Assembly (NCBI GenBank): GCA_964468285.1
Contig: CAYYKG010000018.1
Coordinates: 21,742 to 53,741, forward strand
Source of the DNA: an uncultured Syntrophorhabdus sp.
Lineage (GTDB): Bacteria; Desulfobacterota; Syntrophorhabdia; Syntrophorhabdales; Syntrophorhabdaceae
Direction: 5' to 3'
Length of the DNA: 32,000 nucleotides
In this document: positions 3,026 to 30,771 of the stretch, in pieces
Position numbering within the stretch: position 1 is the stretch's first letter
How the letters are laid out: each line of letters starts with the position of its first letter
The notes under the pieces: model-generated
Told to the model about the DNA's origin: nothing
The model's database searches: none
Seen by the model: the letters and a program-made list of their open reading frames with translations, nothing else
Position numbers and translations under genes: made by a program

Positions 3026-3541
3026 TCAATCTCGCACCATAGCATCGCAGTTACCGCTGCAGGAACCGGCGTTCTTGTCGGTCACCACGTAAGGGTCAGG
3101 AAAGTAGGATACCTGTTTATCATACGTGGCAGGGTCCCAAGTTCCAAAAAGACAGACTGTCCTGACGCTCGTTCCCGCTCTCGAACAGGTTGCATAGGCA
3201 CGGTATATCTGATAGTCCACGCGCATCCATACTCCGCCGGCACCGCGATATACTGTTTGGCCACCATATCCCGCTCTGGGACAAACAATACGGAAGCAAC
3301 CCGGCTCCCAGCTCACCCGGTATGCTGACTCCTGGGTGCAGTCTGCGAAAATCAGATCCTCGTTAAAGGGGCAGCACTGATCAGACATAGCACGCAGTTC
3401 AATGATTGCGCTTTCAAGGTCGCTGCCTGCATGGGGTGTTACCGTCTCGAAGATCCCCGATGCATGTACTGCTGAACCAAGAAGAACCAGACCGACCAGC
3501 AAGCAAGGATTCAGGAGACACAGTACGCTTCCTGACTTCAT
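3026..3541 (-). CDS. Small secreted Cys-rich protein, divergent member (P1) of the NAGG-C-terminal-module family
   Basis: 171 aa. Signal peptide MKSGSVLCLLNPCLLVGLVLLGSAVHA. The C-terminus VVTDKNAGSCSGNCDAMVRD matches the module in 3611-4087, 4132-4716 and 17069-17647. GGGGGA lies upstream of the ATG. No family recognised. Confidence 0.6.
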   Translation of the reverse strand: MKSGSVLCLLNPCLLVGLVLLGSAVHASGIFETVTPHAGSDLESAIIELRAMSDQCCPFNEDLIFADCTQESAYRVSWEPGCFRIVCPRAGYGGQTVYRGAGGVWMRVDYQIYRAYATCSRAGTSVRTVCLFGTWDPATYDKQVSYFPDPYVVTDKNAGSCSGNCDAMVRD

Positions 3542-3610
3542 GGTAATCCCCCTACGGGTATGGATTTATTGTTTCCCTGATGTCAGCCTGAGACAATCCG
3601 GGTTCAGGCA

Positions 3611-4087
3611 TCATCCACCCCCGCTGCTATCGTTGATGGTAGTATTGCATGCCCCCTCGCACTCGCCCCCGGCGTTCCTGTCCGCCATCTCGGTGGTTAT
3701 CGGTGGATCAGGCTGCTGGGATGGTGCCGGACACACACCGACGGGATAGTAATAAACCTTGGAGCCGTTGGAGAAAACAGGGTCCCTGCAACCGTTCGCG
3801 ACGTACGTACAGCCGGGCGTGGTGCAAAAACCGACGTACCGGAAGCAGGAAGGGTTCTGGGGCACAAAATACTGGTAAGCCGGGAGACCATAACAATCCG
3901 CCTTCAGTGCCTCGTAAGCAGACTCCTGGTCAGGGTAGATCACCCACTGATACCTGTCATGGACACATGCACACGCCGACCCGGGCGGATACCCCCATGT
4001 GACCGCCCCCGATGTAAAGGGACACGATACGGTAATACCCAGGAACACCACCGCCAGACTAATGACTGTCATGATTCGTTTCACCAT
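3611..4087 (-). CDS. Small secreted (possibly lipoprotein) Cys-rich protein P2, NAGG-module family
   Basis: The track ORF 3611-4174 has an Arg-rich N-terminal extension that I rejected. ATG at 4087 gives MVKRIMTVISLAVVFLGITVSC PFTSGAVTWGYPPGS (signal peptide; ITVSC fits a loose lipobox). It ends ITTEMADRNAGGECEGACNTTINDSSGGG. Confidence 0.7.
   Translation of the reverse strand: MVKRIMTVISLAVVFLGITVSCPFTSGAVTWGYPPGSACACVHDRYQWVIYPDQESAYEALKADCYGLPAYQYFVPQNPSCFRYVGFCTTPGCTYVANGCRDPVFSNGSKVYYYPVGVCPAPSQQPDPPITTEMADRNAGGECEGACNTTINDSSGGG
3666..3720. repeat. 55-nt segment 54/55 identical to 17121-17175 (encodes QQPDPPITTEM-DRNAGG of P2 and P4)
   Basis: Direct comparison: cccccggcgttcctgtccg[c/t]catctcggtggttatcggtggatcaggctgctggg. 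The flanks diverge immediately on both sides. Confidence 0.85.
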
Positions 4088-4131
4088 GGGCAATCCCCCC
4101 TTCCCCTCCGGAAACATCATATCCCGCCGAC

Positions 4132-4716
4132 TCATCCGCCCACTCCACCTCCGTCGCCGACAAGGATGTCGCACTTGCCATTACACCCTCCCCCGGCGTT
4201 GATATCGGTAACCTCGGTGGCGACCGGGGCATCCTGAATCTGGGCGGGGGGAGGATCGCCCCCCGGGGTACAGACTGGGTACCAGTAGTTCACCTGTGGC
4301 CAATATCCTCCGGGAAGTCTTACGTGTTCCCTGCAATTCTGGCAGGTAAACCCGCAGTCCGTCACACCCGGGCAACCCACCACTCCACAGGTGCAACTGG
4401 TCAAACATTGGGGCAGTGGTGTATAGGCACAGTTCCATTCCCAGTATCGCAGGTTAATGCCCCAGCACCAGGAAGGTTGGGGGCTGAGTCCATCACACAC
4501 TGCCTTGGCGGCATCATAGTCGGCCTTCGCAGCCGCCAACGCGGTGTCGCGATCCGGGTACAACTCGTATTTGTAATAGCGACTCGCCAGACACTGCCCC
4601 AGGGTGGAATCGGAAGGATACCCCCATGTGACGGCCCCCGATGTGACGGGACACGATACGGCAATGCCCAGGAGCACCGCCATCAGACTAAGGACTGATA
4701 AGGTTCTGTTCTTCAT
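4132..4716 (-). CDS. Small secreted (possibly lipoprotein) Cys-rich protein P3, NAGG-module family
   Basis: 194 aa. GGAGG lies 8 nt upstream of the ATG. Starts MKNRTLSVLSLMAVLLGIAVSC PVTSGAVTWGYP. Shares YWEW and CPGVT-CGFTC-NCR motifs with 17069-17647. Ends ATEVTDINAGGGCNGKCDILVGDGGGVGG. Confidence 0.75.
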   Translation of the reverse strand: MKNRTLSVLSLMAVLLGIAVSCPVTSGAVTWGYPSDSTLGQCLASRYYKYELYPDRDTALAAAKADYDAAKAVCDGLSPQPSWCWGINLRYWEWNCAYTPLPQCLTSCTCGVVGCPGVTDCGFTCQNCREHVRLPGGYWPQVNYWYPVCTPGGDPPPAQIQDAPVATEVTDINAGGGCNGKCDILVGDGGGVGG

Positions 4717-4855: not shown

Positions 4856-6067
4856 CTATTCCTTCGACGTCCTGAACACCCCCGAGCCCGTGACCAACCA
4901 GTTGAGGTCGGGGACGGTGTCGAGGTCATGGGAGCCCGTTGTCGCGGGGCCTTCCATGTACCAGATCCTGTTCTCTCCCGTCTTTGTGTTCCTGAAGAGG
5001 ATGTCCGTCCTGCCGTCGCCGTTGAAGTCCGCCGTCGCGGCTATCCTCCAGTCCTGGCCGGGCTGGGTGGTGAGGTTGACGGTACTTACGGGGGTCGTCC
5101 CCTCCATGTACCACAGGGCGTACTGTCCCGTGGAGGAGTCCCTCCAGATGATGTCCGGGGTGCCGTCGCCGTTGAGGTCGCCTGTGGCCGCCATGGTCCA
5201 GTTCGTGGGGGCGGAGGAGATGGCGTCGGAGCCGGTGACCGTCTGGCCGTTCATGTAGAGGACCATGTTCTCCCCGGTTGCCGTGTTCCGTACGAGGATG
5301 TCCGATATGCCGTCGCCGTTGTAGTCCCCGGTGGCCGCCATGGTGAAGTTGCTGCCTGCAATGGAGGCAAGGGTGGCGGAGGAGGCGATCGTCGTCCCGT
5401 CCATGTACCAGATCTGGTTCTCCCCGGTCGTGGCGTTGCTCCAGAGGATGTCCGTCTTGCCGTCGCCGTTGAAGTCACCCGTCACCGCCATGGTCCAGTT
5501 GGGGCCGGGATCGATGGCAAGGCCCGTCGCCTCCATCACCGTCACCCCTTCCATGCGCCAGATGGCATACTGTCCCGTTGTCGTGTCCCTCCAGATGATG
5601 TCCTGAACGGGTGGGACCGTTGCCGTCTCCCGGGTGGCGGTGCTTAAGGACACCTCGGTGACGGAAGAAGGGTTGGAAGAGGCGGTGGATGCCGAGGGGG
5701 TGAGGGAAGCGGTCGTTGTGAGCGTGCTTGCGGGGGATGACGATGCCGCTTTCGCAGAGGCGGGCTTCTGGAGGGTGGCGGTCTTCATGGCCATGCCCAT
5801 CATCCCGCCTTCCCCCGCGGAGACGGCGACGGAGACCCTGTTCCCGTTGGCATCGTAGGTGTAGGTCTCGGTGAGGGAGCTTCCGTAGCCCACCACGCTT
5901 ACGCGGTCGAGGACGTTGTACTCGTAGGTGGTGGTGACGGAGGAGAAGGAGAGAGATGGGAAGAAGAGGAGTATGGTCCAAAGAATCGTTAGGAGGAAGA
6001 CGATGCTGCTCAAGGCGGTATATCTTCCTGTCTGTGGAATGTTATGGGAAAGCTGGGTGGTTTTCAT
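4856..6067 (-). CDS. Secreted FG-GAP/VCBS-repeat (beta-propeller type) protein with Rhs-like leader and YD repeats at the N-terminus
   Basis: 403 aa. Hydrophobic leader, then VTTTYEYNVLDRVSVVG..YTYDANGNRVS (YD repeats) and an S/T/A-rich linker. Then about five ~47-aa repeats of the form DFNGDGKTDILW.N..TGE..IWYM.G (FG-GAP/VCBS signature). Confidence 0.85.
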   Translation of the reverse strand: MKTTQLSHNIPQTGRYTALSSIVFLLTILWTILLFFPSLSFSSVTTTYEYNVLDRVSVVGYGSSLTETYTYDANGNRVSVAVSAGEGGMMGMAMKTATLQKPASAKAASSSPASTLTTTASLTPSASTASSNPSSVTEVSLSTATRETATVPPVQDIIWRDTTTGQYAIWRMEGVTVMEATGLAIDPGPNWTMAVTGDFNGDGKTDILWSNATTGENQIWYMDGTTIASSATLASIAGSNFTMAATGDYNGDGISDILVRNTATGENMVLYMNGQTVTGSDAISSAPTNWTMAATGDLNGDGTPDIIWRDSSTGQYALWYMEGTTPVSTVNLTTQPGQDWRIAATADFNGDGRTDILFRNTKTGENRIWYMEGPATTGSHDLDTVPDLNWLVTGSGVFRTSKE

Positions 6068-6339
6068 GTGTCCCCCTTCGGTAAAAGAAATGCTGGACCG
6101 TCTAAGGCATACTCAAGGCACCTTCCTTGAAATTCGTCACTTCCCGCACCATATCTGTCCGTGTATCACCTACTGCCTCTCCTTCAAAGCTGTAACGATA
6201 CATTGATCATCAATATTAGTGTGCTTATAGATGCCCACATCTCCTAATTTTTTTATTGGCACGTTTATCAGCAACACTTGCGCAACAATGTCCTTAATGA
6301 ATCTGTAGGTCGAAACCATTTTCACACGTATTCTATTAC

Positions 6340-6924
6340 CTAGCTTTCTCTGCAAAAGAATTTCTCAAATAATAATTCCTCTTTTGGTGTGACTAAATAT
6401 ATACAAACCTCACTATTAACACGGCCAGATAATAGAATAAGAGCTTTCTTTCTGCTTTTTAGCGCACCAGCAAGATTTATCCATCTGTTGACTATTTGCT
6501 CGGTTAAGACCAACTGAAAAACAGGATTGCTTACACCGCATTCGATCATATGTACATGGTTGCATAAACCTTGAGCATCAAGAAGACCATATTTATTAAC
6601 GGCGTCTGTAAAATGCTTTTTCATATCAGAATACTCGACATTTTCATCAACAAGGAATATGCCACCGTTTTCAATCAGCAGATTAGACTGCATTACTTCC
6701 TGAAAGTACCTTTTGCCTTTTGATTTGGGACGTACAGACGGCATTCCTAGAACCTCAAATATTTTTTCAATATCGTTCTTTGTATATTTATTATTATGTC
6801 CTGTTGGAGGTGGTATTACGCCGTCATTAATTCTTCTATTTAGAGTTTTTCTTGACATACCAAATGCTTCGGCAACATCCGATTTTGAGATCTTCTTTTT
6901 CTCTACTAATAATTGTATTTTCAT
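6340..6924 (-). CDS. AT-rich HTH-domain protein; positional candidate immunity or regulator for the orphan-1 toxin
   Basis: I chose ATG 6924 (GGAG 6 nt upstream), 11 nt after the orphan-1 stop, not the track start 6963. N-terminus ISKSDVAEAFGMSRKTLNRRINDGVIPPP...YTKNDIEKI looks like a MerR/excisionase-type HTH. Rest unrecognised. Confidence 0.55.
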   Translation of the reverse strand: MKIQLLVEKKKISKSDVAEAFGMSRKTLNRRINDGVIPPPTGHNNKYTKNDIEKIFEVLGMPSVRPKSKGKRYFQEVMQSNLLIENGGIFLVDENVEYSDMKKHFTDAVNKYGLLDAQGLCNHVHMIECGVSNPVFQLVLTEQIVNRWINLAGALKSRKKALILLSGRVNSEVCIYLVTPKEELLFEKFFCRES

Positions 6925-6937
6925 AACAACTCCTGTA

Positions 6938-8176
6938 TCAATCTTTCCTATAGAATAACTCAATACAATCTTCAGGATACTGACGACAATAGTTTGTCAC
7001 CGTGTCAGGCAAACCAAACGCGGCTGGCAATATCCCTTCCTTTCTTGCATACTTGATCCATTTGTCAAAAGCCTTGCTTTTGCATAAATCTTTCTTTTGA
7101 GATTTGGTTAATTCAGGTGGCATTTTTTTGTGAGCAATCGGTTCCAATGTTCGAGCGTCATATCTGTGCCCTTCAGGACTTGTAAAGTGAGGGCGTTGTC
7201 CAGGCCGTTTTCCAACATCCATGTCGTGATCGTATAAATCGAGTCGCCAATCTCCCTTCAATCCAGCAATATCCACCCAGTTCACCGGGCTGTTTTCCGC
7301 ATACACGAACGGATCTATCCCACCCTCCAGCCCTATCGGGTCAGGGGTAAGGTACCTCCCCGTCCTGGGGTCGTAGTACCGGTTCCAGTTGTAGTGGAGG
7401 TTCGTCTCGGCATCGAAGTACTGCCCGGGGAAGCGTATGTTGTTCGTTATGGTGGAGGCGCCGTCGACCTCCGCGTGTCCGAAGCCGTGGTAGGCGGCCT
7501 GCCAGGCAACGGTGCCGGCAGAGTTCGTCATGACCCTCGGGGTGTTGATGTGGTCGGTGTGGAAGTAGTACACCGTATCGGTGGGCCTCACGGTGGCAAG
7601 GGGCATGTCGGAGAGGTAGACGTATTCGACAAGGGTATTCCCGGCGGTGTCCGTCTCCGCTATCAGATGTCCGTTCACATCGTAGTGGAATATCCTCGTC
7701 TCGGCGGGTGTCGCCTTCTTCACCCGGAGGTTGCGTGCATCATAGACGTAGGAGGCGATCTCAGTCTCATTGTCGGTAACCGCGGTGAGCCTGTTCGTAA
7801 GGTCGTAGGTGAAGGTGCGGGTGCCTTCGGTGATGATGTTCCCGTTAGCATCATGGGTGAGGGTCGCCGTGGGGGTGCCCGTTATGGTCGTGAGGCGGTT
7901 CGTCCCGGACTCATAGGCGTAGGTGGTGGAGTCGATGTACTGCCCGGGGGCGCTGCCGATCGTATCCGTTATGGAGGTGACGTTGCCGCTGGCGTCATAA
8001 CCGTAGGAGAGGGACAGGACGGAGCCGGCGGTGATCGAGGAGAGGCGGTACTGGTTGTCCCATGTCTGAGTGAGGGAGAGGCTGTTCCCGTAGGTCAGGG
8101 ACGCGATCCCCCCGAAGGGCATGTAGGTGATGGATGAGGCGAGGGTGACGGGGGTGCCCTGGGTCGTCATGCTCAC
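6938..8176 (-). CDS. Orphan rhs fragment 1: ~305 aa of YD/RHS core plus a unique 106-aa C-terminal toxin domain
   Basis: Nucleotides 7381-8184 are identical to 13482-14285 of the full rhs gene. Core end is PGQYFDAETNLHYNWNRYYDPRTGRYLTPDPIGLEGGIDPFVYAENSPVNWVDIAGL, followed by an unrelated tail (6941-7258). The apparent GTG start is an internal Val codon in the full-length copy. Confidence 0.85.
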   Translation of the reverse strand: MSMTTQGTPVTLASSITYMPFGGIASLTYGNSLSLTQTWDNQYRLSSITAGSVLSLSYGYDASGNVTSITDTIGSAPGQYIDSTTYAYESGTNRLTTITGTPTATLTHDANGNIITEGTRTFTYDLTNRLTAVTDNETEIASYVYDARNLRVKKATPAETRIFHYDVNGHLIAETDTAGNTLVEYVYLSDMPLATVRPTDTVYYFHTDHINTPRVMTNSAGTVAWQAAYHGFGHAEVDGASTITNNIRFPGQYFDAETNLHYNWNRYYDPRTGRYLTPDPIGLEGGIDPFVYAENSPVNWVDIAGLKGDWRLDLYDHDMDVGKRPGQRPHFTSPEGHRYDARTLEPIAHKKMPPELTKSQKKDLCKSKAFDKWIKYARKEGILPAAFGLPDTVTNYCRQYPEDCIELFYRKD

Positions 8177-9082: not shown

Positions 9083-10111
9083 TCACTCCTTATCAAAAGG
9101 TGGAAATTTATTCGGATGTTCTGGATACTTCTTTGACCAATCTTGAGTACATATCGAATTGTATACATTTGCCGCGTATACATTATCAGATGTACTGAGT
9201 TTTCCGGCAGCGGCGGCTTTTCTCAAACAAGCTAGGAGAGCGCTGCATGGTTTTGGATGCCGAGGTAATCCATCGACCCCAACATGTTTTTCAACTTGTT
9301 TAGCATAACCTTTACAGCTAATACCACTATCGCATTTATCCGGTGATTCTGTTCCCATCCTCTTCACGATTTCAGTAATCGTTTTAGCCAAAATTGCTAT
9401 TGCAGGAGGGCCGTAGATTAGAAGCGGCGGTATGGCAATAGCGGCAAGTCCTTCTTTGTCCGTTCTATTTATAGGCTGATTCTCCGTGTAAACATACGGA
9501 TCTATCCCACCCTCCAGCCCTATCGGGTCAGGGGTGAGGTACCTTCCCGTCCTGGGGTCGTAGTACCGGTTCCAGTTGTAGTGGAGGTTCGTCTCAGAGT
9601 CGAAGTACTGGCCGGGGAACCTGAGGTTGTTCGTTATGGTGGAGGAGCCGGCGACCTCAGCGTGTCCGAAGCCGTGGTAGGCTGCCTGCCAGGCGACGGT
9701 TCCGGCGGAGTTCGTCATGACCCTCGGGGTGTTGATGTGGTCGGTGTGGAAGTAGTACACCGTATCGGTGGGTCTCACGGTGGCAAGGGGCATGTCGGAG
9801 AGGTAGACGTGCTCAGCGAGGGTGACACCCGTCCCGTCCGTCTCCGCTATCAGGTGTCCGTTCACATCGTAGTGGAATATCCTCGTCTCGGCGGGTGTCG
9901 TCTTCTTCACCCGGAGGTTATTTGCATCGTAGACGTAGGAGGCGATCTGCGTCTCGTTGTCGGTGATCGCGGTGAGCCTGTTCGTAAGGTCGTAGGTGAA
10001 GGTGCGGGTGCCCTCGGTGATGATGTTCCCGCCCGCGTCATGGGTAAGGGTCGCCGTGGGGGTGCCCGTTATGGTCGTGAGGCGGTTCGTTCGGTTTCTG
10101 GTTTCTGTCAT
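9083..10111 (-). CDS. Orphan rhs fragment 2: ~220 aa of RHS core plus a unique 120-aa C-terminal domain
   Basis: Homologous to the full rhs from NRLTTITGTPTATLTHD onward, but diverged at nucleotide level (9488-10090 vs 13402-14004). Core end is DPIGLEGGIDPYVYTENQPINRTDKEGL. The tail (9086-9445) begins with a hydrophobic stretch AAIAIPPLLIYGPPAIAILA. Its ATG overlaps the upstream gene's stop (ATGA at 10108-10111). Confidence 0.85.
   Translation of the reverse strand: MTETRNRTNRLTTITGTPTATLTHDAGGNIITEGTRTFTYDLTNRLTAITDNETQIASYVYDANNLRVKKTTPAETRIFHYDVNGHLIAETDGTGVTLAEHVYLSDMPLATVRPTDTVYYFHTDHINTPRVMTNSAGTVAWQAAYHGFGHAEVAGSSTITNNLRFPGQYFDSETNLHYNWNRYYDPRTGRYLTPDPIGLEGGIDPYVYTENQPINRTDKEGLAAIAIPPLLIYGPPAIAILAKTITEIVKRMGTESPDKCDSGISCKGYAKQVEKHVGVDGLPRHPKPCSALLACLRKAAAAGKLSTSDNVYAANVYNSICTQDWSKKYPEHPNKFPPFDKE
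9488..10090. repeat. Diverged third copy of the rhs core segment (aligns to 13402-14004)
   Basis: Collinear at offset 3914 with scattered substitutions, about 4-8 per 60 nt in the lines I compared. Confidence 0.8.
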
Positions 10112-10452
10112 TCTTTCTTCATCTTGTTTTTCTGACGCCTAACACTCAGCCGATAAATGATAAATTCGTTTAATATAACAAACGACAATAAGATTAGACC
10201 TCGGGCATATATCGAGTCGGGTATATCTATACGCGATAGCCCTGATGCATTCAGTATCCCTATGCATAATGCCCCCACTAGACTCCAAGGTGAGGCAACT
10301 ACCACAAGAAACAGAGCTGCAAATTGATCCGTTGAATCCGCCGTGGCAAAATATAGGAAAGATGGAATCACAAGGATAGTGTAAACAATGTTACCCAAAT
10401 ACGATTTGATGAATTGTCTCATTTTCGCCTCTTGAAAACCTCTCATGGACAT
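10108..10452 (-). CDS. Small multi-pass membrane protein; candidate immunity for the PLA2-like toxin
   Basis: 114 aa with about three hydrophobic helices, visibly AT-rich, overlapping the 3' end of the toxin cassette. An alternative ATG at 10446 forms ATGA with the toxin stop. Confidence 0.6.
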   Translation of the reverse strand: MSMRGFQEAKMRQFIKSYLGNIVYTILVIPSFLYFATADSTDQFAALFLVVVASPWSLVGALCIGILNASGLSRIDIPDSIYARGLILLSFVILNEFIIYRLSVRRQKNKMKKE

Positions 10453-10847
10453 CCACAGTATTGTCTGGCCTTCTTGAAAGCAGGTTTCGCTCCGAAAGAT
10501 ACTGCTGCATAATAGATACTAGCAGCCGAAGTGCATGACTGGAATAAGCCAGGGATAGCGATATACTTGAAACAAATCTTTTGCATACTGACGAAAAATG
10601 CAAGGTCACATGCTGCCTTATTTCTTCCTTGTTTCTCGCCTACACAACCATAACAGTCATCATGAGCTTGACAGGGTTTGGAGAAGTCCAGAACCCAAAA
10701 CGGTCGATCAGGAACCCACTTGGCATCTTCATTCCCGCAAGGACCGGGAAACAATCCCATGACATCAGTTTTGTTCACCGGGTTATTGTCCGCGTGATAC
10801 CGTCGGAAAACCCCCTCGTTGACCTCGGTATTTGCCATCATCGCCAT
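10443..10847 (-). CDS. Orphan Rhs-CT cassette: residual core end + phospholipase A2-like toxin domain
   Basis: RYHADNNPVNKTDVMGL is a degenerate Y..NNP....DP.GL core terminus. Downstream, PCQAHDDCYGC (10644-10673) matches the PLA2 catalytic C-x-x-H-D-x-C-Y signature and GPCGNED could be a Ca-loop. An in-frame TGA lies about 11 codons upstream of the ATG, so there is no attached Rhs body. Confidence 0.7.
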   Translation of the reverse strand: MAMMANTEVNEGVFRRYHADNNPVNKTDVMGLFPGPCGNEDAKWVPDRPFWVLDFSKPCQAHDDCYGCVGEKQGRNKAACDLAFFVSMQKICFKYIAIPGLFQSCTSAASIYYAAVSFGAKPAFKKARQYCGCP

Positions 10848-10899: not shown

Positions 10900-12640
10900 T
10901 CATTCTGCTATTCGTGCGCCTGTTCGCCAGGGCAGCCCCTGTCCTTTTCATATCCATCATGCGGGAACGAACCCTATCTTCGGCTTGAGCTTCTCGATCT
11001 CCAGCTTGATCCACCGCTTTATGTTCACGACGGCTGCGGTGAAGTAGCACTGGAGCCTTACCTTATTGAGGCCCCGGTACCTCGCCCTCCTTAAGCCGTG
11101 ATAACGGACCATCTCGGAAAGCTTCCCCTCGATGGGCGGCCTCAATCTCATGTCCTCCCTGAAGGCCTCCGTACGGTTGTATATCTCGGCATCACGGAGG
11201 ACCCTGTTGAACCTGCTGATGCATACAGTCCGTCTCTTCTCCGAAGATACGGTGCATTGACTGTTGCGGGGGCACCTCGTGCAGATAGGCCGTGGGAAGT
11301 GGTAGACCGCTATTGACCGGCCCTTTTCATAGGATGCGGGGTTTGTCGTCACACCTTCGGGACAGGTAAGGGTCATGGTCTCCTCGTTGTGGTGGAACAG
11401 TCTCTTGGGAAGGACGGCGCGTGTCGTGTTGTTGGGGATCTTCAAGGGGGCGATAACCTTTGTTCCCAGATCCCTCAGGGCCCTGCGGTGTATACCGTTA
11501 CTGTACGCGGTGTCCCCGATGAGCTTTGGTGGCTTGAGCCCGTGAGGGTGCTGTTCGAGGATAGAGATTGTCGTCACATCGCCGTCGGGGCGGTTCCCCG
11601 GTATTGCCTGGATGCTCGTGATGAAACGGCTCTTCGTCGTTTCCGTGATGTTTGCCTTGTAGCCCGTGAAGCGTTTGCTCCTAGACTTGGCGCCGTAGCG
11701 GGCATCGGGATCGACGGGTGAGACGAGGATGTCCTTCGGTTTGCCTGAGTAGGGCATCTCCCGTGGCCCCTCGTTATCTTCCTCTATGTTCTCCCTGAGG
11801 ATGCGGCGGAGCATGCCGGCGGGTTCAGTGATAACGGGATCGTCAATGTCCTTTATATGGTCGAGGACCTTTTTGGCGTCCTTCACCACGTCGACGAGGG
11901 CCCGTTTCTTCTTCTCCATATCCATGCGACCGGGGTGATCGTGGTTGATCTCGTTCCTCTCATAGGGGGCGAGGTCGATGTCGGAGGATATGGCAGACAG
12001 GATACGGGTATGCTTCTTCTGAAGGGGCTTCAAGACCTCGAAGATTCCCCTCTTGACGAGGCCTATCATGGTGGGGATGGCGATGTCGGCGATGACGTGG
12101 GTGGCGTCGATCCTCTGGATCTCGTTCTTCTCGATGAGACCGTCATCTATGAGGGCGGAGAGTATCCTGTCGAAGACCTCCTTCTCCTTCCCGTTCACGA
12201 GGAGCCTCTTCCTGAAGTCGTGGAGGGAGGAGTGGTCGAAGGGACGCTCGTCTATGGAGAGATTGAGGGCGTACTTGATCTCGATGTCGTAGGTGCAGGC
12301 CCTTTCCATCTGCCTGTCCGAGAGGTCCCGGTGAAACTGGAGGATCGTCGCCATGGCGAGAAGGGAGGGAGCGATGGCGGGACGTCCGTTGTCCCTGCAG
12401 TACATCTGCCTGAAGTCCTCGTCCTTGATGAGGGGATACACGGTCTGCCGGAACCTGCGGTAGAAGCTGTCCTCGGGGATCAGCCTCTCGCAGAGGGAGT
12501 CGGTATCGAAGAAGCTTGCCTGCCTGCACGTGGGTCGGAGCATGCTTAAGAGGTCCTTTCGGTTGTAGGGTATAGATCCATTATACCTCGTAGATGGTTG
12601 CAAATAAAGAGGCTTCGACCATTTACATGGCGCATTTTCT
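10900..12640 (-). mobile_element. Insertion sequence (IS1182/IS5-type); ends not resolved
   Basis: Single transposase gene sitting between the rhs immunity candidate and the orphan PLA2 cassette. I could not identify convincing terminal inverted repeats or a target duplication by eye, so the boundaries are approximate. Confidence 0.55.
10957..12543 (-). CDS. DDE transposase, IS1182/IS5 superfamily
   Basis: I chose ATG 12543 (MLRPTCRQASFFD...). InsH-type N-terminal domain (DNGRPAIAPSLLAMATILQFHRDLSDRQMERACTYDIEIKYALNL). DDE candidates are RIDATHV, LIGDTAYS and PPIEGKLSEM. Cys cluster CPEG...CTRCPRNSQC. Family tail is GLRRARYRGLNKVRLQCYFTAAVVNIKRW. Confidence 0.9.
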   Translation of the reverse strand: MLRPTCRQASFFDTDSLCERLIPEDSFYRRFRQTVYPLIKDEDFRQMYCRDNGRPAIAPSLLAMATILQFHRDLSDRQMERACTYDIEIKYALNLSIDERPFDHSSLHDFRKRLLVNGKEKEVFDRILSALIDDGLIEKNEIQRIDATHVIADIAIPTMIGLVKRGIFEVLKPLQKKHTRILSAISSDIDLAPYERNEINHDHPGRMDMEKKKRALVDVVKDAKKVLDHIKDIDDPVITEPAGMLRRILRENIEEDNEGPREMPYSGKPKDILVSPVDPDARYGAKSRSKRFTGYKANITETTKSRFITSIQAIPGNRPDGDVTTISILEQHPHGLKPPKLIGDTAYSNGIHRRALRDLGTKVIAPLKIPNNTTRAVLPKRLFHHNEETMTLTCPEGVTTNPASYEKGRSIAVYHFPRPICTRCPRNSQCTVSSEKRRTVCISRFNRVLRDAEIYNRTEAFREDMRLRPPIEGKLSEMVRYHGLRRARYRGLNKVRLQCYFTAAVVNIKRWIKLEIEKLKPKIGFVPA

Positions 12641-12903: not shown

Positions 12904-15900
12904 CTAGTTGTTTTCATGTCTACCCATCATATCAGGCGCAGAAGAAGGCACCGTGAAAAGTCTGTTTCGCTTGTAAGGGGGTTTGCTTGCATCACGAGGC
13001 CGGTTTGGCCAAGATCCAGCCTTGCTGAGCCCACAGTTTTCAAGGGCTGTGGCCACGCAATGACAGCAATTGTACATGGTAAGGTAGTAGTCGAATGCTC
13101 TGCATTTTCTCATTTCTCGCCTTACACAGGCATCACTCCCGCAGCCTACCGTAGGACTAAACTTGGCGGCACCGGGATTAGCGTCTGGCCCAATTCCCTG
13201 ATTTGTAAAACTCAATGTATCGTCATTGCGACCATTGAACCTGACAAAGCAGTGTCGTGCGTACGGTACTGCATAAGGATAAAACGTTCGAACCCCTACT
13301 TCCACAAATAGGCCTTTCGGGTCGACGCGGTTCATGGGACTATTGTTCGTGTAAACGAAAAGGTTCGGTTCATTCAGCAAGGGTTTTCCGACAGTATCCG
13401 CGTAAACATACGGATCTATCCCTCCCTCCAGCCCTATCGGGTCAGGGGTGAGGTACCTCCCTGTCCTGGGGTCGTAGTAGCGGTTCCAGTTGTAGTGGAG
13501 GTTCGTCTCGGCATCGAAGTACTGCCCGGGGAAGCGTATGTTGTTCGTTATGGTGGAGGCGCCGTCGACCTCCGCGTGTCCGAAGCCGTGGTAGGCGGCC
13601 TGCCAGGCAACGGTGCCGGCAGAGTTCGTCATGACCCTCGGGGTGTTGATGTGGTCGGTGTGGAAGTAGTACACCGTATCGGTGGGCCTCACGGTGGCAA
13701 GGGGCATGTCGGAGAGGTAGACGTATTCGACAAGGGTATTCCCGGCGGTGTCCGTCTCCGCTATCAGATGTCCGTTCACATCGTAGTGGAATATCCTCGT
13801 CTCGGCGGGTGTCGCCTTCTTCACCCGGAGGTTGCGTGCATCATAGACGTAGGAGGCGATCTCAGTCTCATTGTCGGTAACCGCGGTGAGCCTGTTCGTA
13901 AGGTCGTAGGTGAAGGTGCGGGTGCCTTCGGTGATGATGTTCCCGTTAGCATCATGGGTGAGGGTCGCCGTGGGGGTGCCCGTTATGGTCGTGAGGCGGT
14001 TCGTCCCGGACTCATAGGCGTAGGTGGTGGAGTCGATGTACTGCCCGGGGGCGCTGCCGATCGTATCCGTTATGGAGGTGACGTTGCCGCTGGCGTCATA
14101 ACCGTAGGAGAGGGACAGGACGGAGCCGGCGGTGATCGAGGAGAGGCGGTACTGGTTGTCCCATGTCTGAGTGAGGGAGAGGCTGTTCCCGTAGGTCAGG
14201 GACGCGATCCCCCCGAAGGGCATGTAGGTGATGGATGAGGCGAGGGTGACGGGGGTGCCCTGGGTCGTCATGCTCACCTGGGATACCCTCTGCACCGTGT
14301 CCATGGTATAGCTTACCACCCTTCCCGACGGATAGGTAACGGAAGTGAGAATGTTGTTCTTGTTGTAGGTGTACTGGGTCGTGTAGGAGACGCTGTTCAC
14401 GACCTTGTCCTCCCGCACCATGTTTCCCTGGGCGTCATAGGAGAAGGTGTAGGTGCCGGAGGGGTCCGTCCGCCCCGTGAGCCTTCCGATACCGTAGGTG
14501 ACGGAGGTGGAGTCGTAGGTGAAGGTTATGTTCTGCGTGGAGTCGGAGGGGAACTGGACGGAGGTTATCCGGTTGAGGGCGTCGTAGCCGTAGTTGACGA
14601 CGGTGCTTCTCGCGTCCGTCATCTGGGTCACGTTGCCGGCGGGATCGTGGACGTACTTCGTCGTCCCCGTGTCGGGGGAGACGACCTGATTGAGCCTGCC
14701 GAAGTCGTCATAGGCGTACTGGGTGGTGAAGGTGTTGGGGTCGACTATGGACGAGGGGTTGTCCTGGGTGTCATAGTTGTAGCTCGTGAGGTTCGACCCC
14801 GGCCTCGTCATGGTCCGGGCCCTGTCGAGGGCATCCCAGGTGAAGGAGGTGGTGTTGTCCCTCGGGTTCCTCACGGCGGTCCTCTCCGACCTCTCGTTGT
14901 AGGTGTACTGGGTGTAGGTGGAGTCGGGGTTCACGATCCGGTAGATGTTGTTGTAGGCGTCGTAGGTGAGGTCGAGGTACTTCTTGAGGACATTACCGGG
15001 ATCCCTGACCTCCTCGCGGGTGCGGTTGCCCTCCACGTCGTAGGAGTACGTGATCTTGTTCCCCTGGTTGTCCTGTATCCCGGTGAGCCTGTCGGCGAGG
15101 TTGTAGGTGTAGTCTATCCTGTTGCCCTCGGGGGGTATGACGTAGGAGAGGTTCCCCCTGCCGTCGTAGAAGTACTGGATCTGACCGTTCGTCGACTGGT
15201 TCGTGGAGGTGAGAAGGCGGTTCCTCTGGTCGTAGGTGTGCACCGTGACGACACCGTCGGGGGCGGTGATCGTCCCCGCGTTGCCGTTCGCATCGTAGTT
15301 GGAGAAGGTTGTCACCTGTCCCAGGGCGTTCGTGATCGTGTAGAGGCGGCCCCGGTTGTTGCCCTCTTCTGCCGTGTTGGCGTAGTAGGCAAGCGTCGTC
15401 GTGTCCGTCACGTCCGTGCGGGGACCGTTGATCTCGGCGAGCTGTCCCAGGGCGTTGTACTGGTAGGAGGTGGTATAGGTCCTCTGGACAGGTGACCCGT
15501 CGACGAGGACATAGCCCGTTACCGTCACCGAGGAGACGTTGCCCGCGGTATCGTAGGCGGTCGTTATCACCTTCGACTGGCCGGTACTCACGACACTCGG
15601 CTTCGTCTCGGACCTCTCAGTGAGGAGGAAGGGGTCGTCGGTGCGGTGGGTGTAGGCGTATGTCGTCTCCCTCTCCTCGGCGAGACCGTAGGCCTCCTTC
15701 ATGCTCGTCACCTCTCCCACGTAGTCCCAGAAGCTCGTGGGGGCGTCATAGGTGTAGTGGGTGGTGTACGCCTGGCTCTCGGAGGTGCGGGTGACGTCCG
15801 TCAGGGTGCCCCGGGTGTCGTAGGTGAAGGACTTGTGCAGGCTCCCCCCGCAGGTCGAGCCGCACCCGTCCACGGCGGTCACGAGGCGTATGCCGTCGTT

Positions 15901-16953
15901 GATGGCGGTGGTGTACGTCGTCGTCCCCGTGGAGCGGGTCAGCGTCGTGGTGTTGGGGGTGGAGGTGTAGTCGTAGGTGAAGGTTATCTGCTCCTGGTTG
16001 ACGGTGTCCCTGACGAAGCGGTAGTAGGTGGAGACCCTGCCGTTCGCGTCATAGGCCCAGTGGCCGATGAGGTTCGAGGAGGTGTCGTACTTGTCCGTCA
16101 TGCGGTGGCTGGAGTAGGCGTAGCTTAACGACCGGCTGTCGGGGTAGCTGACCTGGGTGAGGTCGCTGCTGGTATAGGTGTATGTCACCTGCTGGCTCTT
16201 CGGGTCGGTGACGGAGGATATCTTCGTCCCGCTGTACGCGATCGTGAGGCTCCTGCCGTAGTTGTCGGTGATGTCGGTGACAAGATCGCTCGTATACGTG
16301 AGGGTGAGGGAGTTCCCGCTGGGGTCGGTGATGCTTGTAAGCTTGCCGTCCGTTCCGAAGGTGTAGGTGAGGTTGGAGTCGCTCTTCCTCAGGACATACT
16401 GACCCGTGGAGATGATCTTCTTGAACCGGTGGCGCACCCCGGACTCCCCGTAGAAGCGCAGCTCGTCGGTGTACGTCTGGAAGATGCGGGAGAAGTAGAG
16501 GGCCCGACCGTCGGAGTCCATGACCTTGATCCGTACGGGTGTTGTCACACCCCCTATCGTCCAGTTCGTCACGACCGTGACGGACATGTTGTAGGTGTGC
16601 GTCCATCCGTAGCCCAGGGGACCGTCGGAGAGCATGCTGCTGTTGTAGGACCTTTTGAACTCGAGGGGAATGCCGGGGGTGGAGAAGGAGACGTCGAGGG
16701 CCTCCTCGTACTTCTGGCCCGTGCCCACGTTGACGGGGTTGGCGACGAACGGGGCGGGCACGCCCTCCCTTGTGCCCCCGGCGTTCAGGTCGGCTGCCTC
16801 GGACGAAGGGACGGGACCGGGCTGCGCAGAGAGGGCCGCATCCTCGCTATCCTGCACCAGGGGAGCGGCTTCACCGGGTACGTGCATCGTTATGGAGACA
16901 ACTGCCAGCAGCATACCGAAAATGCATATCCACGCTCCAATCATCATCTTCAC
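12904..16953 (-). CDS. Full-length Rhs/YD-repeat polymorphic toxin (1349 aa) with N-terminal hydrophobic leader and a papain-fold (PPPDE/DeSI-like) C-terminal domain
   Basis: Leader MKMMIGAWICIFGMLLAVVSITM. Rhs N-terminal region NPVNVGTGQKYEEALD. Dozens of YD repeats. Core end is RYYDPRTGRYLTPDPIGLEGG...NLFVYTNNSPMNRVDPKGL. The 134-aa tail (12907-13308) has ARHCFVRF...TLSF and YYLTMYNCCHCVATALENCGL...WPNRP, resembling the PPPDE His...NC-H order. Confidence 0.95.
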   Translation of the reverse strand: MKMMIGAWICIFGMLLAVVSITMHVPGEAAPLVQDSEDAALSAQPGPVPSSEAADLNAGGTREGVPAPFVANPVNVGTGQKYEEALDVSFSTPGIPLEFKRSYNSSMLSDGPLGYGWTHTYNMSVTVVTNWTIGGVTTPVRIKVMDSDGRALYFSRIFQTYTDELRFYGESGVRHRFKKIISTGQYVLRKSDSNLTYTFGTDGKLTSITDPSGNSLTLTYTSDLVTDITDNYGRSLTIAYSGTKISSVTDPKSQQVTYTYTSSDLTQVSYPDSRSLSYAYSSHRMTDKYDTSSNLIGHWAYDANGRVSTYYRFVRDTVNQEQITFTYDYTSTPNTTTLTRSTGTTTYTTAINDGIRLVTAVDGCGSTCGGSLHKSFTYDTRGTLTDVTRTSESQAYTTHYTYDAPTSFWDYVGEVTSMKEAYGLAEERETTYAYTHRTDDPFLLTERSETKPSVVSTGQSKVITTAYDTAGNVSSVTVTGYVLVDGSPVQRTYTTSYQYNALGQLAEINGPRTDVTDTTTLAYYANTAEEGNNRGRLYTITNALGQVTTFSNYDANGNAGTITAPDGVVTVHTYDQRNRLLTSTNQSTNGQIQYFYDGRGNLSYVIPPEGNRIDYTYNLADRLTGIQDNQGNKITYSYDVEGNRTREEVRDPGNVLKKYLDLTYDAYNNIYRIVNPDSTYTQYTYNERSERTAVRNPRDNTTSFTWDALDRARTMTRPGSNLTSYNYDTQDNPSSIVDPNTFTTQYAYDDFGRLNQVVSPDTGTTKYVHDPAGNVTQMTDARSTVVNYGYDALNRITSVQFPSDSTQNITFTYDSTSVTYGIGRLTGRTDPSGTYTFSYDAQGNMVREDKVVNSVSYTTQYTYNKNNILTSVTYPSGRVVSYTMDTVQRVSQVSMTTQGTPVTLASSITYMPFGGIASLTYGNSLSLTQTWDNQYRLSSITAGSVLSLSYGYDASGNVTSITDTIGSAPGQYIDSTTYAYESGTNRLTTITGTPTATLTHDANGNIITEGTRTFTYDLTNRLTAVTDNETEIASYVYDARNLRVKKATPAETRIFHYDVNGHLIAETDTAGNTLVEYVYLSDMPLATVRPTDTVYYFHTDHINTPRVMTNSAGTVAWQAAYHGFGHAEVDGASTITNNIRFPGQYFDAETNLHYNWNRYYDPRTGRYLTPDPIGLEGGIDPYVYADTVGKPLLNEPNLFVYTNNSPMNRVDPKGLFVEVGVRTFYPYAVPYARHCFVRFNGRNDDTLSFTNQGIGPDANPGAAKFSPTVGCGSDACVRREMRKCRAFDYYLTMYNCCHCVATALENCGLSKAGSWPNRPRDASKPPYKRNRLFTVPSSAPDMMGRHENN
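13482..14285. repeat. Master copy of the rhs core repeat (identical to 7381-8184; diverged copy at 9488-10090)
   Basis: Same comparison as for 7381-8184. Confidence 0.9.
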
Positions 16954-17068: not shown

Positions 17069-17647
17069 TCATCTCATCCCCTGACCGCCAACGGTGATGT
17101 CACACGTCCCGGCACACCCTCCCCCGGCGTTCCTGTCCGTCATCTCGGTGGTTATCGGTGGATCAGGCTGCTGGGTCGGGGGAGAACCGGGGCCGCATAT
17201 GTAATACCAGTAATTGGTTTTTCTCCAATAGTTCTGTTCCGGATCCCATCCCGGGTCCCGGCAGTTTTTGCAGGTGAAACCACAGTTCGTCACTCCAGGG
17301 CAGAAATAAAAGCAACCAGAGGTCGAGCTACAGCACGGGGGACAATCTAAACACCAAGTACAGCCCCATTCCCAATACTCCAGATTACTGCAATAGGACG
17401 GTTTCGGGCTGGGGGCCGCCGCACATAATGCCTGTACTGCGGCATAATCCGCCTCCAAAGCGGCCACCGCACTGCCCCTGTCAGGGAAGACGAGGGTCGT
17501 GAACATCTCGTTGGCCAAACACTCGGCCAGAGATGAGCCGGGTGGATATCCCCACGTCAGTGCCCCACACGATGATGGAAATCCTGCAGAAACCGTCTGG
17601 ACTATCAGGAAAAAACCCAACGCGTACAGCAGAAGACTGACTCTCAC
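17069..17647 (-). CDS. Small secreted Cys-rich protein P4, NAGG-module family, directly upstream of the main rhs
   Basis: I chose GTG 17647 (GGAGGA 6 nt upstream), giving MRVSLLLYALGFFLIVQTVSA GFPSSCGALTWGYPPGS. Ends ITTEMTDRNAGGGCAGTCDITVGGQGMR. 17121-17175 is 54/55 identical to 3666-3720. Confidence 0.75.
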   Translation of the reverse strand: MRVSLLLYALGFFLIVQTVSAGFPSSCGALTWGYPPGSSLAECLANEMFTTLVFPDRGSAVAALEADYAAVQALCAAAPSPKPSYCSNLEYWEWGCTWCLDCPPCCSSTSGCFYFCPGVTNCGFTCKNCRDPGWDPEQNYWRKTNYWYYICGPGSPPTQQPDPPITTEMTDRNAGGGCAGTCDITVGGQGMR

Positions 17648-17915: not shown

Positions 17916-18344
17916 TCATTCCCAGCTCGCGACATCCTTGTCTTCCCCTTCCCCGCCGGGCGAACCGTCCCTTCCATACGAGAACAAATCATATTCTCCA
18001 TGGGTGCCTGGAGCCTGATAATGGTAGGGTTTACCCCAGGGATCATTGGGAAGTGCCTTCTTGAGATAGGGTCCTTCCCAGTTCTCGATACCCGGGTTGG
18101 TGACGAGGGCATTGAGTCCCTCCTGCATCGAAGGATAACGTCCCACGTCAAGTCTGAAGTGGTCGAGGGTCTGGCCCAGAAGCTCTATCTGGGCCTTTGC
18201 AGCAGCCTGTTTCCCTTTGCCCAGCTTCGGGAACACCCGCGGCCCCACCAGGGCGACAAGCAGGCCGACGATCACCATCACGACAAGAAGCTCTATGAGC
18301 GTGAAGCCTCTTGTGTCCGAAGTCCTCGTTTGACTGCACGACAT
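17916..18344 (-). CDS. gspG: T2SS major pseudopilin GspG
   Basis: Prepilin motif RGFTLIELLVVMVIVGLL plus the GspG signature PNDPWGKPYHYQAPGTHGEYDLFSYGRDGSPGGEGEDKDVASWE. Confidence 0.95.
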   Translation of the reverse strand: MSCSQTRTSDTRGFTLIELLVVMVIVGLLVALVGPRVFPKLGKGKQAAAKAQIELLGQTLDHFRLDVGRYPSMQEGLNALVTNPGIENWEGPYLKKALPNDPWGKPYHYQAPGTHGEYDLFSYGRDGSPGGEGEDKDVASWE

Positions 18345-18661
18345 GTCATCCTCCAGTTAGTCATGTATTGTATCGATGCCTGTCAATGGATGATTAACCA
18401 GTGTGTTTCTTCTTCATTTCGCGGAGACTAAGATGGTGATCTGATAATTAGTACTGACATTGTATGACTTTTATTCTTGACAGTCCACCAAATATTGTTT
18501 AACTTCAAATTTACTTCGGGTGACAAACACCAGGATCGACAGAATACCTGAATAGAACGGCCGAAACAGCACAGCACTCAGTCGCGGGTCTCGGGGATGC
18601 TTTCTCTACTTCCGGGAAGGAAGCACAGATCCGCAGGCTGCCATTGATGTTCGGAGAGTCT

Positions 18662-20926: not shown

Positions 20927-22452
20927 ACGGCCGGACGGTCATACATCTCTCCCCGGAAGAATTCCCCAGGGTACCTCTCGTCCTGGACGGTATATCCATG
21001 CGATTCATCAAGGAGAACAGGATCATCCCCTTCGAGTGGAAGAACAACACGCTCAAGATCATCATGGCCGAGCCGCAAAACCACGAGGTCATCGATGCCC
21101 TGCGGGCCGTGGTGGGTGGCGATGTCCTGGTCCACAGCGGGGACCCCGCCACCATCAACGAGCACATATCACGCTTCTACAGCCAGGAACAGCAGAACCT
21201 GGACAGTATAATCGAGGGCATCGAGGGCGACAACCTGGAGTTCTTAAGCGACGCGGAGGAAGAGGATGTAGGCCACCTCAAGGACCTTGCCTCCGAGGCA
21301 CCCATCATCCGGCTCGTGAACCTCGTTATCACCCGCGCCGTCGAATCGAGGGCGAGCGACATCCACATCGAACCCTTCGAGGACGAGCTCAAGATCCGCT
21401 ACCGGATAGACGGGGTGTTGAGCGACGTGGAGGCGGCCCCGAAGAGACTCCAGGCCGCCATCGTATCGCGCCTCAAGATCATGGCGAAACTGAACATCGC
21501 CGAGCGCAGGCTCCCCCAGGACGGCAGGATGCGTCTTCGTGTCGGGGAGCGGGAGATCGATCTGAGGGTCTCCACGATACCCATCCTCCACGGCGAGAGC
21601 GTCGTCATGAGGATCCTCGACAGGGAAAGCGTCGTCATCGATCTCGATGCCCTCGGCTTTGCCCCCGACACCCTCGACAGGTTCAACGGCATCATCACGA
21701 GGCCCAACGGGATCTTCCTCGTCACGGGACCCACGGGGAGCGGCAAGACCACGACCCTGTATGGTGCCCTCGACAAGATCAACTCGCCGGGAAGGAAGAT
21801 CATCACCGTCGAGGACCCCGTGGAGTACCAGCTCAAGGGCGTCAACCAGATCCAGGTGAAGCCGCAGATAGGGCTCCATTTCGCGAACACCCTGAGGCAC
21901 ATCGTCCGGCAGGACCCGGACGTCATCATGATCGGAGAGATAAGAGACCTCGAGACGGCGGAGATCGCCATACAGGCGGCCCTTACGGGCCATCTCGTCT
22001 TCTCCACTCTCCACACGAACGACGCCCCAAGCGCCATCACGCGGCTTCTCGACATGGGCGTGGAGGCCTTCCTCCTGTCATCGACGGTGCGGGGCATCCT
22101 GGCGCAGAGGCTGCTCCGGGTCATCTGCCCCTCGTGCAGGAACGTTGACCCCGCCCCCGAGATCAGGCAGGGGCTCTCAGGTGCCGGCCTCTCCGAGGGG
22201 ACCACCCTGTACCGCGGCAAAGGGTGCGAGAGGTGTGGCCACACGGGGTTCATGGGCAGGGTTGGCGTCTTCGAGCTCCTCGTCGTCGATGACGGGATCC
22301 GCGGGCTCATTCTCAAGAGAGCGGACGAGAGGACGATCAGGGACGCAGCTCGCCGGGCCGGCATGAGGACACTCCTCGAGGACGGCATCCAGAAGGTCCG
22401 CACGGGAACGACCACCCTCGACGAGGTCTACAGGGTCACGAAGGAGGACTAA
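20923..22452 (+). CDS. gspE: T2SS ATPase GspE
   Basis: Walker A GPTGSGKTTTLY, Walker B/His-box region, tetracysteine CPSCR...CERCGHTG, and an N-terminal GspE-N-like domain. The GTG start overlaps the gspD stop (GTGA); ATG 20998 is an alternative. Confidence 0.95.
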   Translation: MNGRTVIHLSPEEFPRVPLVLDGISMRFIKENRIIPFEWKNNTLKIIMAEPQNHEVIDALRAVVGGDVLVHSGDPATINEHISRFYSQEQQNLDSIIEGIEGDNLEFLSDAEEEDVGHLKDLASEAPIIRLVNLVITRAVESRASDIHIEPFEDELKIRYRIDGVLSDVEAAPKRLQAAIVSRLKIMAKLNIAERRLPQDGRMRLRVGEREIDLRVSTIPILHGESVVMRILDRESVVIDLDALGFAPDTLDRFNGIITRPNGIFLVTGPTGSGKTTTLYGALDKINSPGRKIITVEDPVEYQLKGVNQIQVKPQIGLHFANTLRHIVRQDPDVIMIGEIRDLETAEIAIQAALTGHLVFSTLHTNDAPSAITRLLDMGVEAFLLSSTVRGILAQRLLRVICPSCRNVDPAPEIRQGLSGAGLSEGTTLYRGKGCERCGHTGFMGRVGVFELLVVDDGIRGLILKRADERTIRDAARRAGMRTLLEDGIQKVRTGTTTLDEVYRVTKED

Positions 22453-24095: not shown

Positions 24096-24096
24096 G

Positions 24097-28947: not shown

Positions 28948-29029
28948 GAGAGGAGACTGGAGCCCACCGAAATAGCCCGCACATTACTGAACAGGGGTCT
29001 TTTGTGGTATTGTATTTTTATTAAATTGC

Positions 29030-29058
29030 TTGCCACATCATTTCAGCCGCTATACAAT
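29030..29058 (+). promoter_or_regulatory. Candidate sigma70-type promoter: TTGCCA -17 nt- TACAAT, 6 nt before the ATG (near-leaderless abiEi-like mRNA)
   Basis: Hexamers read directly: TTGCCA at 29030-29035, TACAAT at 29053-29058, ATG at 29065. No SD sequence fits in the gap. Confidence 0.35.
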
Positions 29059-29064
29059 ACATCC

Positions 29065-30758: not shown

Positions 30759-30771
30759 TTTGTTCTCCTTT

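Follow-up and report, generated by a model that had tools for sequence, protein, structure and literature searches.

Small cysteine-rich secreted proteins beside Rhs and teneurin-like toxin genes of an uncultured Syntrophorhabdus as putative stand-alone N-terminal toxin domains

In Rhs toxins of type VI secretion systems (T6SS), an N-terminal delivery module is either fused to the toxin or supplied by a small upstream gene (PAAR; the VgrG, Eag/DUF1795 and DUF4123 adaptors). The N-terminal portions of Rhs proteins define the trafficking route (PMC8636562), and after cleavage the N-terminal fragment is kept on the cocoon by a seal peptide and an anchor helix, the residues just before the plug (PMC8765631; see also PMC8636562). 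WapA and the bacterial teneurin-like proteins are Sec-dependent YD toxins with downstream immunity genes; their N-termini are thought to govern surface display (bioRxiv 10.1101/2025.11.11.687626). In the Tc (ABC) toxins, a YD-repeat cocoon (TcB-TcC) is joined by a separately encoded binding subunit, TcA, that provides receptor binding and translocation. CdiA, the colicins and the pyocins pair a constant delivery scaffold with a binding domain and a toxin that both vary, and recombination shuffles these domains. Small accessory proteins encoded beside cargo or machinery also occur in type II secretion, as the chaperones LipB and CpaB of Acinetobacter and the pilotins GspS/PulS; these are membrane-anchored or lipidated, and they are conserved rather than polymorphic multi-copy families. 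To our knowledge, mechanistic work on Rhs has been done almost entirely on T6SS-borne proteins, rather than on how Sec-dependent Rhs and teneurin-like toxins exit Gram-negative bacteria and reach their targets. Four small genes (P1 to P4) that adjoin two toxin genes of the latter kinds were analyzed here in a 32,000-nucleotide stretch of DNA, referred to as the window, from an uncultured Syntrophorhabdus sp. (assembly GCA_964468285.1, contig CAYYKG010000018.1, positions 21,742 to 53,741). The sequences indicate that P1-P4 are the polymorphic N-terminal domain and linker found in one clade of DUF6531 Rhs toxins exported by Sec, here encoded as stand-alone proteins.

The four open reading frames (ORFs), three at 3026-4716 and a fourth farther along, were present as a first-pass annotation of the sequence had described them:

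3026-3541, minus strand: P1, 171 aa, a stand-alone B-type Cys-rich domain with a signal peptide (called as an ORF).
3611-4135, minus strand: P2, a stand-alone A-type domain with a shortened core (the 174-aa gene call P0017).
4132-4716, minus strand: P3, 194 aa, a stand-alone A-type Cys-rich domain (called as an ORF).
17069-17647, minus strand: P4, GTG start, 192 aa, a stand-alone A-type Cys-rich domain between gspG and the Rhs gene.

The open frame of P2 spans 3611-4174; its likely start is at 4135, overlapping the stop codon of P3 (ATGA), or at 4087, directly before the signal peptide. All four N-termini carry positive charge followed by a hydrophobic stretch, as is typical of a Sec signal, and the signal peptides assigned earlier were therefore upheld in 4/4 proteins; cleavage in P1 is probably at VHA/SGIFE. 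Cys accounts for 6.2-9.7% of the mature chains, compared with 0-0.8% in neighbouring proteins (14 Cys in mature P3, 8 in P2), which bears out the richness in Cys that had been reported. The C-termini and motifs quoted in the first-pass annotation were all exact. The shared tail follows TD-x-NAGG-x-C-x-G-x-C-[DN] and reads PDPYVVTDKNAGSCSGNCDAMVRD in P1 and ATEVTDINAGGGCNGKCDILVGDGGGVGG in P3, each ending at the stop codon; (S)GA(V/L)TWGYP is found in P2, P3 and P4, and YWEW with CPGVT-CGFTC-NCR in P3 and P4, the YWEW...CPGVT block being absent from P2. When all six frames of the window were scanned, NAG[GS].C.G.C matched only P2, P3 and P4; P1, which has the one-residue-shorter NAGSCSGNC, was found with D.NAG and C.G.C[DN]. 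Among 840 ORFs, a hidden Markov model (HMM) of the tail alone scored all family members at E 1e-10 to 1e-21.

The four proteins had been taken for paralogs. That holds for the tail, which is common to all of them, but the P1 core (B) is not detectably homologous to that of P2-P4 (A; hhalign probability 3.6%). By these comparisons P1 represents a second subfamily that has only the tail in common with P2-P4, and the tail is an independent module because the A and B cores are not homologous. AlphaFold2 modeled P3 as a moderately confident alpha/beta core (residues 30-160, mean predicted local distance difference test score [pLDDT] 70) with a tail (residues 165-194) of pLDDT <50; the tail is thus predicted to be disordered on its own. 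The number of Cys in the mature chain is mostly 9, an odd number, in B-type proteins (P1, P0013, P0014, P0025, P0029 and the protein at 11922-12536 of locus L009) and even in most A-type proteins. An odd count is compatible with a free thiol, which could allow an intermolecular disulfide.

The same domains were found built onto Rhs proteins in relatives, which substantiates the functional tie to YD toxins that had been suggested from gene order. Such proteins begin with a signal peptide and a variable domain rich in Cys and aromatic residues; the linker follows, then NPVNVxTGxKYE (plug), the YD shell and the toxin. The linker has the form [ST][ST]-E-x-[TD]-D-[KR]-N-x-G ... C-x(2-4)-C-[DN]-x4. 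A-type domains fused to Rhs were obtained as profile matches (P0022, P0027, P0030 and P0035), and L013 shows such a fusion in its genome context. In these proteins the signal peptide is followed by the A domain (AVTWGYP..., ASPWGYQP...), the tail and then NPVNVTTGNKYE, the start of the DUF6531 plug. Fused B-type domains (P0037 and P0038) were recovered when a search with the window's Rhs leader and plug returned further Rhs N-terminal fragments. P1 and P0038 show 64% identity across 163 aa (E 1e-77), a stretch that begins with the signal peptide and runs to ...KNAGSC.G.CDAM. The P1-like domain of P0038 continues ...CDAMAGNPVNVATGQKYEE into Rhs; past CDAM, P0038 reads AGNPVNVATGQKYEE and P1 reads VRD-stop. 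Since P0038 continues into Rhs where P1 stops, P1 ends at the plug junction. P4 and the N-terminal domain of P0022, a fused Rhs, share 37% identity over 184 aa (E 1e-27), so that both P1 and P4 are homologous to the domain that in Rhs proteins separates the signal peptide from the DUF6531 plug. The A-type proteins P0003 and P0019 end in ...NP, residues that MAFFT aligned with the C-N-P of the fused proteins. The alignments accordingly place the ends of both the A (P2-P4) and the B (P1) genes at, or a few residues from, the plug junction. In the window, L007, L009, L011, L017, L019 and L021, the small genes have their own stop codons, and covalent continuity with the Rhs shell is absent. The linker in the AlphaFold2 model of the fused fragment P0038 was of low confidence and held no docking information. 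The fused Rhs gene of L013 is broken at a poly-C run (~10700-10830), and similar breaks occur in L016; the break in L013 probably reflects missequencing of the homopolymer and not a true frameshift.

The linker was also located in the Rhs protein of the window itself, in a leader that carries no such domain:

12904-16953, minus strand: Rhs toxin, 1349 aa; DUF6531 plug, YD-repeat shell, RHS core and C-terminal toxin.
16738-16953, minus strand: N-terminal leader of this Rhs protein; signal peptide and a domain-less copy of the linker (AQPGPVPSSEAADLNAGGTREGVPAPFVA), ending at NPVNVGTGQKYEE, the start of DUF6531.

The leader reads ADLNAGG...ANPVNV. Together with four orthologs that likewise lack the domain, it conforms to Q-P-x-P-x-x-[ST][ST]-E-x-x-D-x-N-[AT]-G-G ... 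F-V-A-N-P-V-N-V; D-x-N-[AT]-G-G is invariant in the five orthologous leaders (window, L007, L009, L011 and L019), and the flanking residues vary. The probability of D-x-N-A-G-G arising by chance in a 45-residue leader was roughly estimated at ~5e-5 from typical residue frequencies. Twenty-six Rhs N-termini were compared. At least eight N-terminal domain types that BLAST did not link to one another sit on this linker, and most of the 26 sequences have [DE]-[KR]-N-[LAS]-G and a short Cys-containing stretch before NP[VAT]N[VI]xTGNKYE; the linker motif ([DE]-[KR]-N-x-G plus Cys) lies a fixed short distance ahead of NPVNVxTGxKYE. Because the codons of the motif vary synonymously between genomes, selection acts on the peptide, and a DNA-level site was ruled out on the same ground. 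The tail is the linker preceding the Rhs plug domain and not a new sorting signal. In the Syntrophorhabdaceae-type lineage the gene is split, with Rhs retaining the signal peptide and linker and having lost the domain.

The position of the small genes relative to the toxin genes was assessed over all loci with enough flanking sequence. In every one of them (window, L007, L009/L014, L011, L017, L019 and L021) small genes stand directly 5' of an Rhs or teneurin-like gene and are co-directional with it, in agreement with what had been noted for the window alone. The Rhs gene begins 115 nt from the end of P4, and the start of the second toxin gene is 128 nt from the end of P1:

1-2897, minus strand: 5' part of a teneurin-like YD toxin gene, 965 codons; signal peptide, IPT/TIG domains and teneurin TTR domain.

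This gene starts at 2897 and leaves the window at the window's start; in the full contig (L001) it encodes 2468 aa.

The family is rare, and no described relative was found. Neither Pfam nor NCBIfam gave a match for any of P1-P4, profiles of PDB sequences held no relative of the A or B core, and the best Foldseek hit of the P3 model in the PDB had a meaningless E of 0.7; the earlier statement that no named domain is recognizable was therefore sustained. In a word-indexed search of 5.8 billion proteins, P3 yielded 7 clusters and P1 4 clusters, and an exhaustive profile search of 1.84 billion representative proteins gave 23 matches. The members come mostly from Syntrophorhabdaceae-type and other uncultured Thermodesulfobacteriota, among them a metagenome-assembled genome of Syntrophorhabdaceae (one NCBI record) and one GTDB genome, that of an uncultured delta proteobacterium (L013). 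Pattern scans of genomes and of metagenomes returned one locus each, which limits distribution statistics. The tail, whose conservation outside this genome had been named as a point on which the first-pass interpretation could fail, is kept in ~30 relatives from other assemblies. Three giant Ig-like repeat proteins (P0016, P0020 and P0032) were rejected as compositional false positives, their scores being built up from many weak repeats (ATNSGGTSSADISITVNDN). A Thr-rich peptide with two Cys might also suggest a precursor of a ribosomally synthesized and post-translationally modified peptide, such as a lanthipeptide; this was rejected on the grounds of the Sec signal, the 130-aa folded domain and the internal position of the peptide in Rhs, with no search of the window for modifying enzymes behind the rejection. 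The lipobox pointed out earlier in P2 and P3 (IAVSC / ITVSC) is present there and fits P0002 and P0004 as well, but the Cys is absent from P1, P4, P0003, P0005 and others, so that no conserved lipobox with an invariant +1 Cys was found. Lipidation is not a family trait, since that Cys is not conserved and the pattern fits only a subset of homologs.

None of the closest analogues is homologous to P1-P4. Among P1-P4, Pfam and NCBIfam gave no match to the DUF1795, DUF4123, DUF2169 or PAAR families. Unlike the T6SS Rhs loading modules, P1-P4 are Sec-exported, disulfide-rich and highly polymorphic, and they stand in a type II secretion context with no T6SS genes nearby. With 150-200 aa they differ from the 280-kDa TcA pentamers of the Tc toxins, to which they show no similarity of sequence or fold, and no translocation channel is evident; a further likeness to the Tc system is that the island encodes a beta-propeller protein with a weak TcdB_toxin_midN match. 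The binding domain of CdiA, the colicins and the pyocins lies within the toxin polypeptide, whereas here it is split off into several paralogous genes. To the type II secretion chaperones and pilotins P1-P4 show no homology in Pfam or NCBIfam. The N-termini of WapA and the teneurin-like toxins are lipoprotein regions, S-layer regions or regions that bind the cell wall, all within the toxin, and a term search of the study describing them found neither a DKNxG linker nor small Cys-rich partners encoded by genes of their own (bioRxiv 10.1101/2025.11.11.687626). The Cys-rich domains and their linker are so far undescribed, and the split arrangement of multiple paralogs beside a type II secretion cluster is new.

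The small proteins most likely serve the two giant toxins encoded beside them as exchangeable parts for targeting or attachment. Stated in full, the preferred reading is that the proteins are polymorphic N-terminal binding modules, encoded apart from the neighbouring toxins and functioning together with them, their attachment being a step that we infer; this reading was given a probability of about 50%. Each small protein would be exported by Sec, relieved of its signal peptide and folded with disulfides in the periplasm. The flexible tail, the sole part common to the A-type genes, the B-type genes and Rhs, would anchor the protein on the toxin cage or, alternatively, would be bound to a partner common to both toxins. 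The complex would then leave the cell, plausibly via the adjoining type II secretion system. Outside, the Cys-rich domain would serve as a binding module that recognizes a receptor on the target cell or retains the toxin on the surface, and the several divergent paralogs per locus would provide alternative specificities. A role in binding or targeting is favored over one in export because the domains are strongly polymorphic, and recognition of one conserved secretion machine would favor conservation. The secretion genes in question are as follows:

17916-18344, minus strand: gspG (major pseudopilin), T2SSG E 4.6e-41; 268 nt upstream of P4 and co-directional.
18644-28225, plus strand: complete type II secretion cluster; GspD secretin, GspE ATPase, GspF, three minor pseudopilins, GspK, GspL-like (PilN domain) and GspM.

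Every ORF of the adjoining cluster was matched to a type II secretion family. L009 has gspG, small gene and Rhs in the same order, and the toxin island stands beside a type II secretion cluster in that diverged genome (L009/L014) as well, making two diverged genomes with this adjacency. Type II export of the small proteins or Rhs is plausible from this adjacency (17916-28225 and L009/L014). A more elaborate version, in which Rhs and teneurin-like toxins form a binary system whose target specificity or surface attachment is supplied in trans by small, polymorphic, disulfide-rich heads that plug into the cage by a conserved seal-like peptide and share a dedicated type II exit with it, is put forward tentatively and is rather doubtful.

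Several observations weigh against the preferred reading. The tail HMM did not match the Rhs leaders significantly (E ~1), and the homology of tail and leader is argued instead from three features, namely D-x-N-[AT]-G-G being invariant, the place of this motif relative to NPVNV, and the register of the MAFFT alignment. A linker in cis is already present on Rhs and may occupy the presumed docking site for a small protein. The teneurin-like protein has an FN-type plug and no linker motif, yet three small genes stand upstream of its gene. No type II secretion genes adjoin the fused-type loci L013, L015 and L016. In addition, the T6SS-type residues for N-terminal autoproteolysis, the catalytic Asp in D-P/V and the Glu in PVxxxxGE (PMC8636562, PMC8765631), are replaced in the Rhs proteins of the window, L007, L009, L011 and L019 (N-P-V for D-P-V, and G-Q/N for G-E). 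N-terminal processing in this Rhs clade may be absent or different, and the replacements make it uncertain whether an N-terminal fragment that is retained after cleavage is a fitting analogy.

Substitution patterns were used to gauge whether the small genes are functional and how they have evolved. The ratio of nonsynonymous to synonymous substitution rates (dN/dS) against counterparts in other genomes was 0.20-0.31 (~0.25 for P1; 0.20 for P3 against its L007 counterpart), as would be expected of functional genes under purifying selection. Between P4 and its positional counterpart in L009, dS was 1.15, compared with 0.18 for the flanking FG-GAP gene and 0.30 for Rhs, and for this reason the cassettes must be much older than their flanks or have been replaced. 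The 5' end of P2 is 80-93% identical to P3 at the nucleotide level, its tail (~60 nt) is 96% identical to P4, and identity elsewhere is ~50%; P2 is on these figures a mosaic recombinant. Polymorphism in these Rhs toxins affects the N-terminus in addition to the C-terminal toxin end.

These data can also be accommodated if the small genes are mainly spare N-terminal modules, with recombination at the linker or among the paralogs rebuilding or swapping the Rhs N-terminus. Such a reservoir would fit the mosaic structure of P2 and the divergence of the cassettes, which far exceeds that of their flanks, and it would mirror the orphan C-terminal toxin cassettes of the same locus, which the window holds together with an insertion sequence (IS) element:

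6938-8176, minus strand: orphan Rhs C-terminal cassette with a downstream gene.
9083-10111, minus strand: orphan Rhs C-terminal cassette with a downstream gene.
10443-10847, minus strand: phospholipase-A2-like orphan toxin, with a small membrane protein at 10108-10452.
10957-12603, minus strand: IS transposase (DUF772/DDE_Tnp_1), inserted just after the main Rhs gene.

Moreover, AACGCCGGGGG forms direct repeats, one in the tail of P4 and one in the leader of Rhs, that share their codon phase, and a deletion between the repeats would give an in-frame fusion as seen elsewhere. We nonetheless consider a reservoir unlikely. Each small gene has its own start, signal peptide and stop, and dN/dS is 0.2-0.3. 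Only 11 nt are identical with the Rhs leader, and the codons of the motif vary between genomes; the signal peptide of Rhs is unlike those of the small genes, which leaves no homology arm on the 5' side; and arrays are also found upstream of the teneurin-like gene, which offers no linker for recombination. With their own starts and signals, and with no long DNA homology to the main gene, the small genes do not resemble orphan (silent) Rhs cassettes.

A second alternative is that the linker is a tag read by a third party, either the type II secretion system or a further protein of the island, and that the small proteins and Rhs are parallel cargo that form no complex. The island protein concerned is the following:

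4856-6067, minus strand: YD/FG-GAP protein, 403 aa; N-terminal hydrophobic segment, two YD repeats and an FG-GAP/VCBS beta-propeller.

This protein, which has a Ser/Thr/Ala-rich spacer and is the one with the weak TcdB_toxin_midN match, is conserved upstream of the small genes in L007 and also in L009, whose copy is 91% identical, and its place is always between the array that precedes the teneurin-like gene and the Rhs block. It is a possible further partner. Its conservation in the island is consistent with a shared tag, as are the presence of one motif on both the small proteins and the Rhs leader, the predicted disorder of the tail, and the order gspG, small gene, Rhs kept in two genomes. 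However, the teneurin-like toxin has no motif, fused-type Rhs loci carry the same linker with no type II secretion genes nearby, and the fixed position of the motif relative to the start of the plug points to a cage-related role. We also know of no described type II secretion signal that is a linear peptide. Independent cargo of this kind is, on balance, quite unlikely.

That the small genes are non-functional remnants of Rhs gene rearrangements is very improbable: Rhs loci do accumulate fragments, and part of the P2 core has been lost, but the frames are intact, the signal peptides are conserved, dN/dS is 0.2-0.3, and the arrangement persists in at least six contig sets although the small proteins are only 42-83% identical. 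Least credible of all is the reading of the tail, a conserved C-terminal motif on secreted proteins, as a free sorting or recognition module of a new kind, because fused relatives carry the motif internally and Rhs carries it near the N-terminus, only 12-19 mostly polar or Gly residues follow it, with no transmembrane helix (as the first-pass annotation had observed), unlike the PEP-CTERM, MYXO-CTERM and GlyGly-CTERM signals, which have such a helix and a basic cluster at the extreme C-terminus, it has no NCBIfam match, and it is accompanied by no sortase-like gene (exosortase, rhombosortase) among the window ORFs that were put through Pfam. The tie to YD toxins and the undescribed nature of the family survive from the first-pass interpretation, with the tail now read as the linker before DUF6531.

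The remaining features of the window were catalogued. The minus strand from 18344 down to 1 is a toxin island. The GC content drops to 0.38 at 6001-7000. Downstream of the secretion cluster lies an AbiEi-type antitoxin-like gene (29002-29859, plus strand); the ORFs at 29888-30700 and 30697-31680 had no Pfam match. Scans for promoters and terminators gave counts at chance level. Outside the window, a gene for an Rce1-like (CPBP/Abi) membrane protease stands 3' of the teneurin-like gene in L001 (20017-20585), L007 (18895-19575) and L017 (9625-10236), and in L007 it overlaps the stop codon of the teneurin-like gene. This gene probably provides immunity or is related to the gene that does. Processing of CAAX/CPBP type was set aside, since the Rce1-like gene occupies the position expected of an immunity gene.

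The hosts of this rare family are hard to grow, so that heterologous systems would be required for testing. The natural split into separate genes makes the architecture open to such tests in trans, and the toxins stand in physical linkage with a type II secretion cluster. Unrelated N-terminal domains of many kinds are attached to a single Rhs scaffold by the conserved pre-plug linker peptide. If the more elaborate binary reading is true, the small proteins and their toxins would represent Sec-dependent YD toxins of AB-type architecture whose heads can be exchanged.

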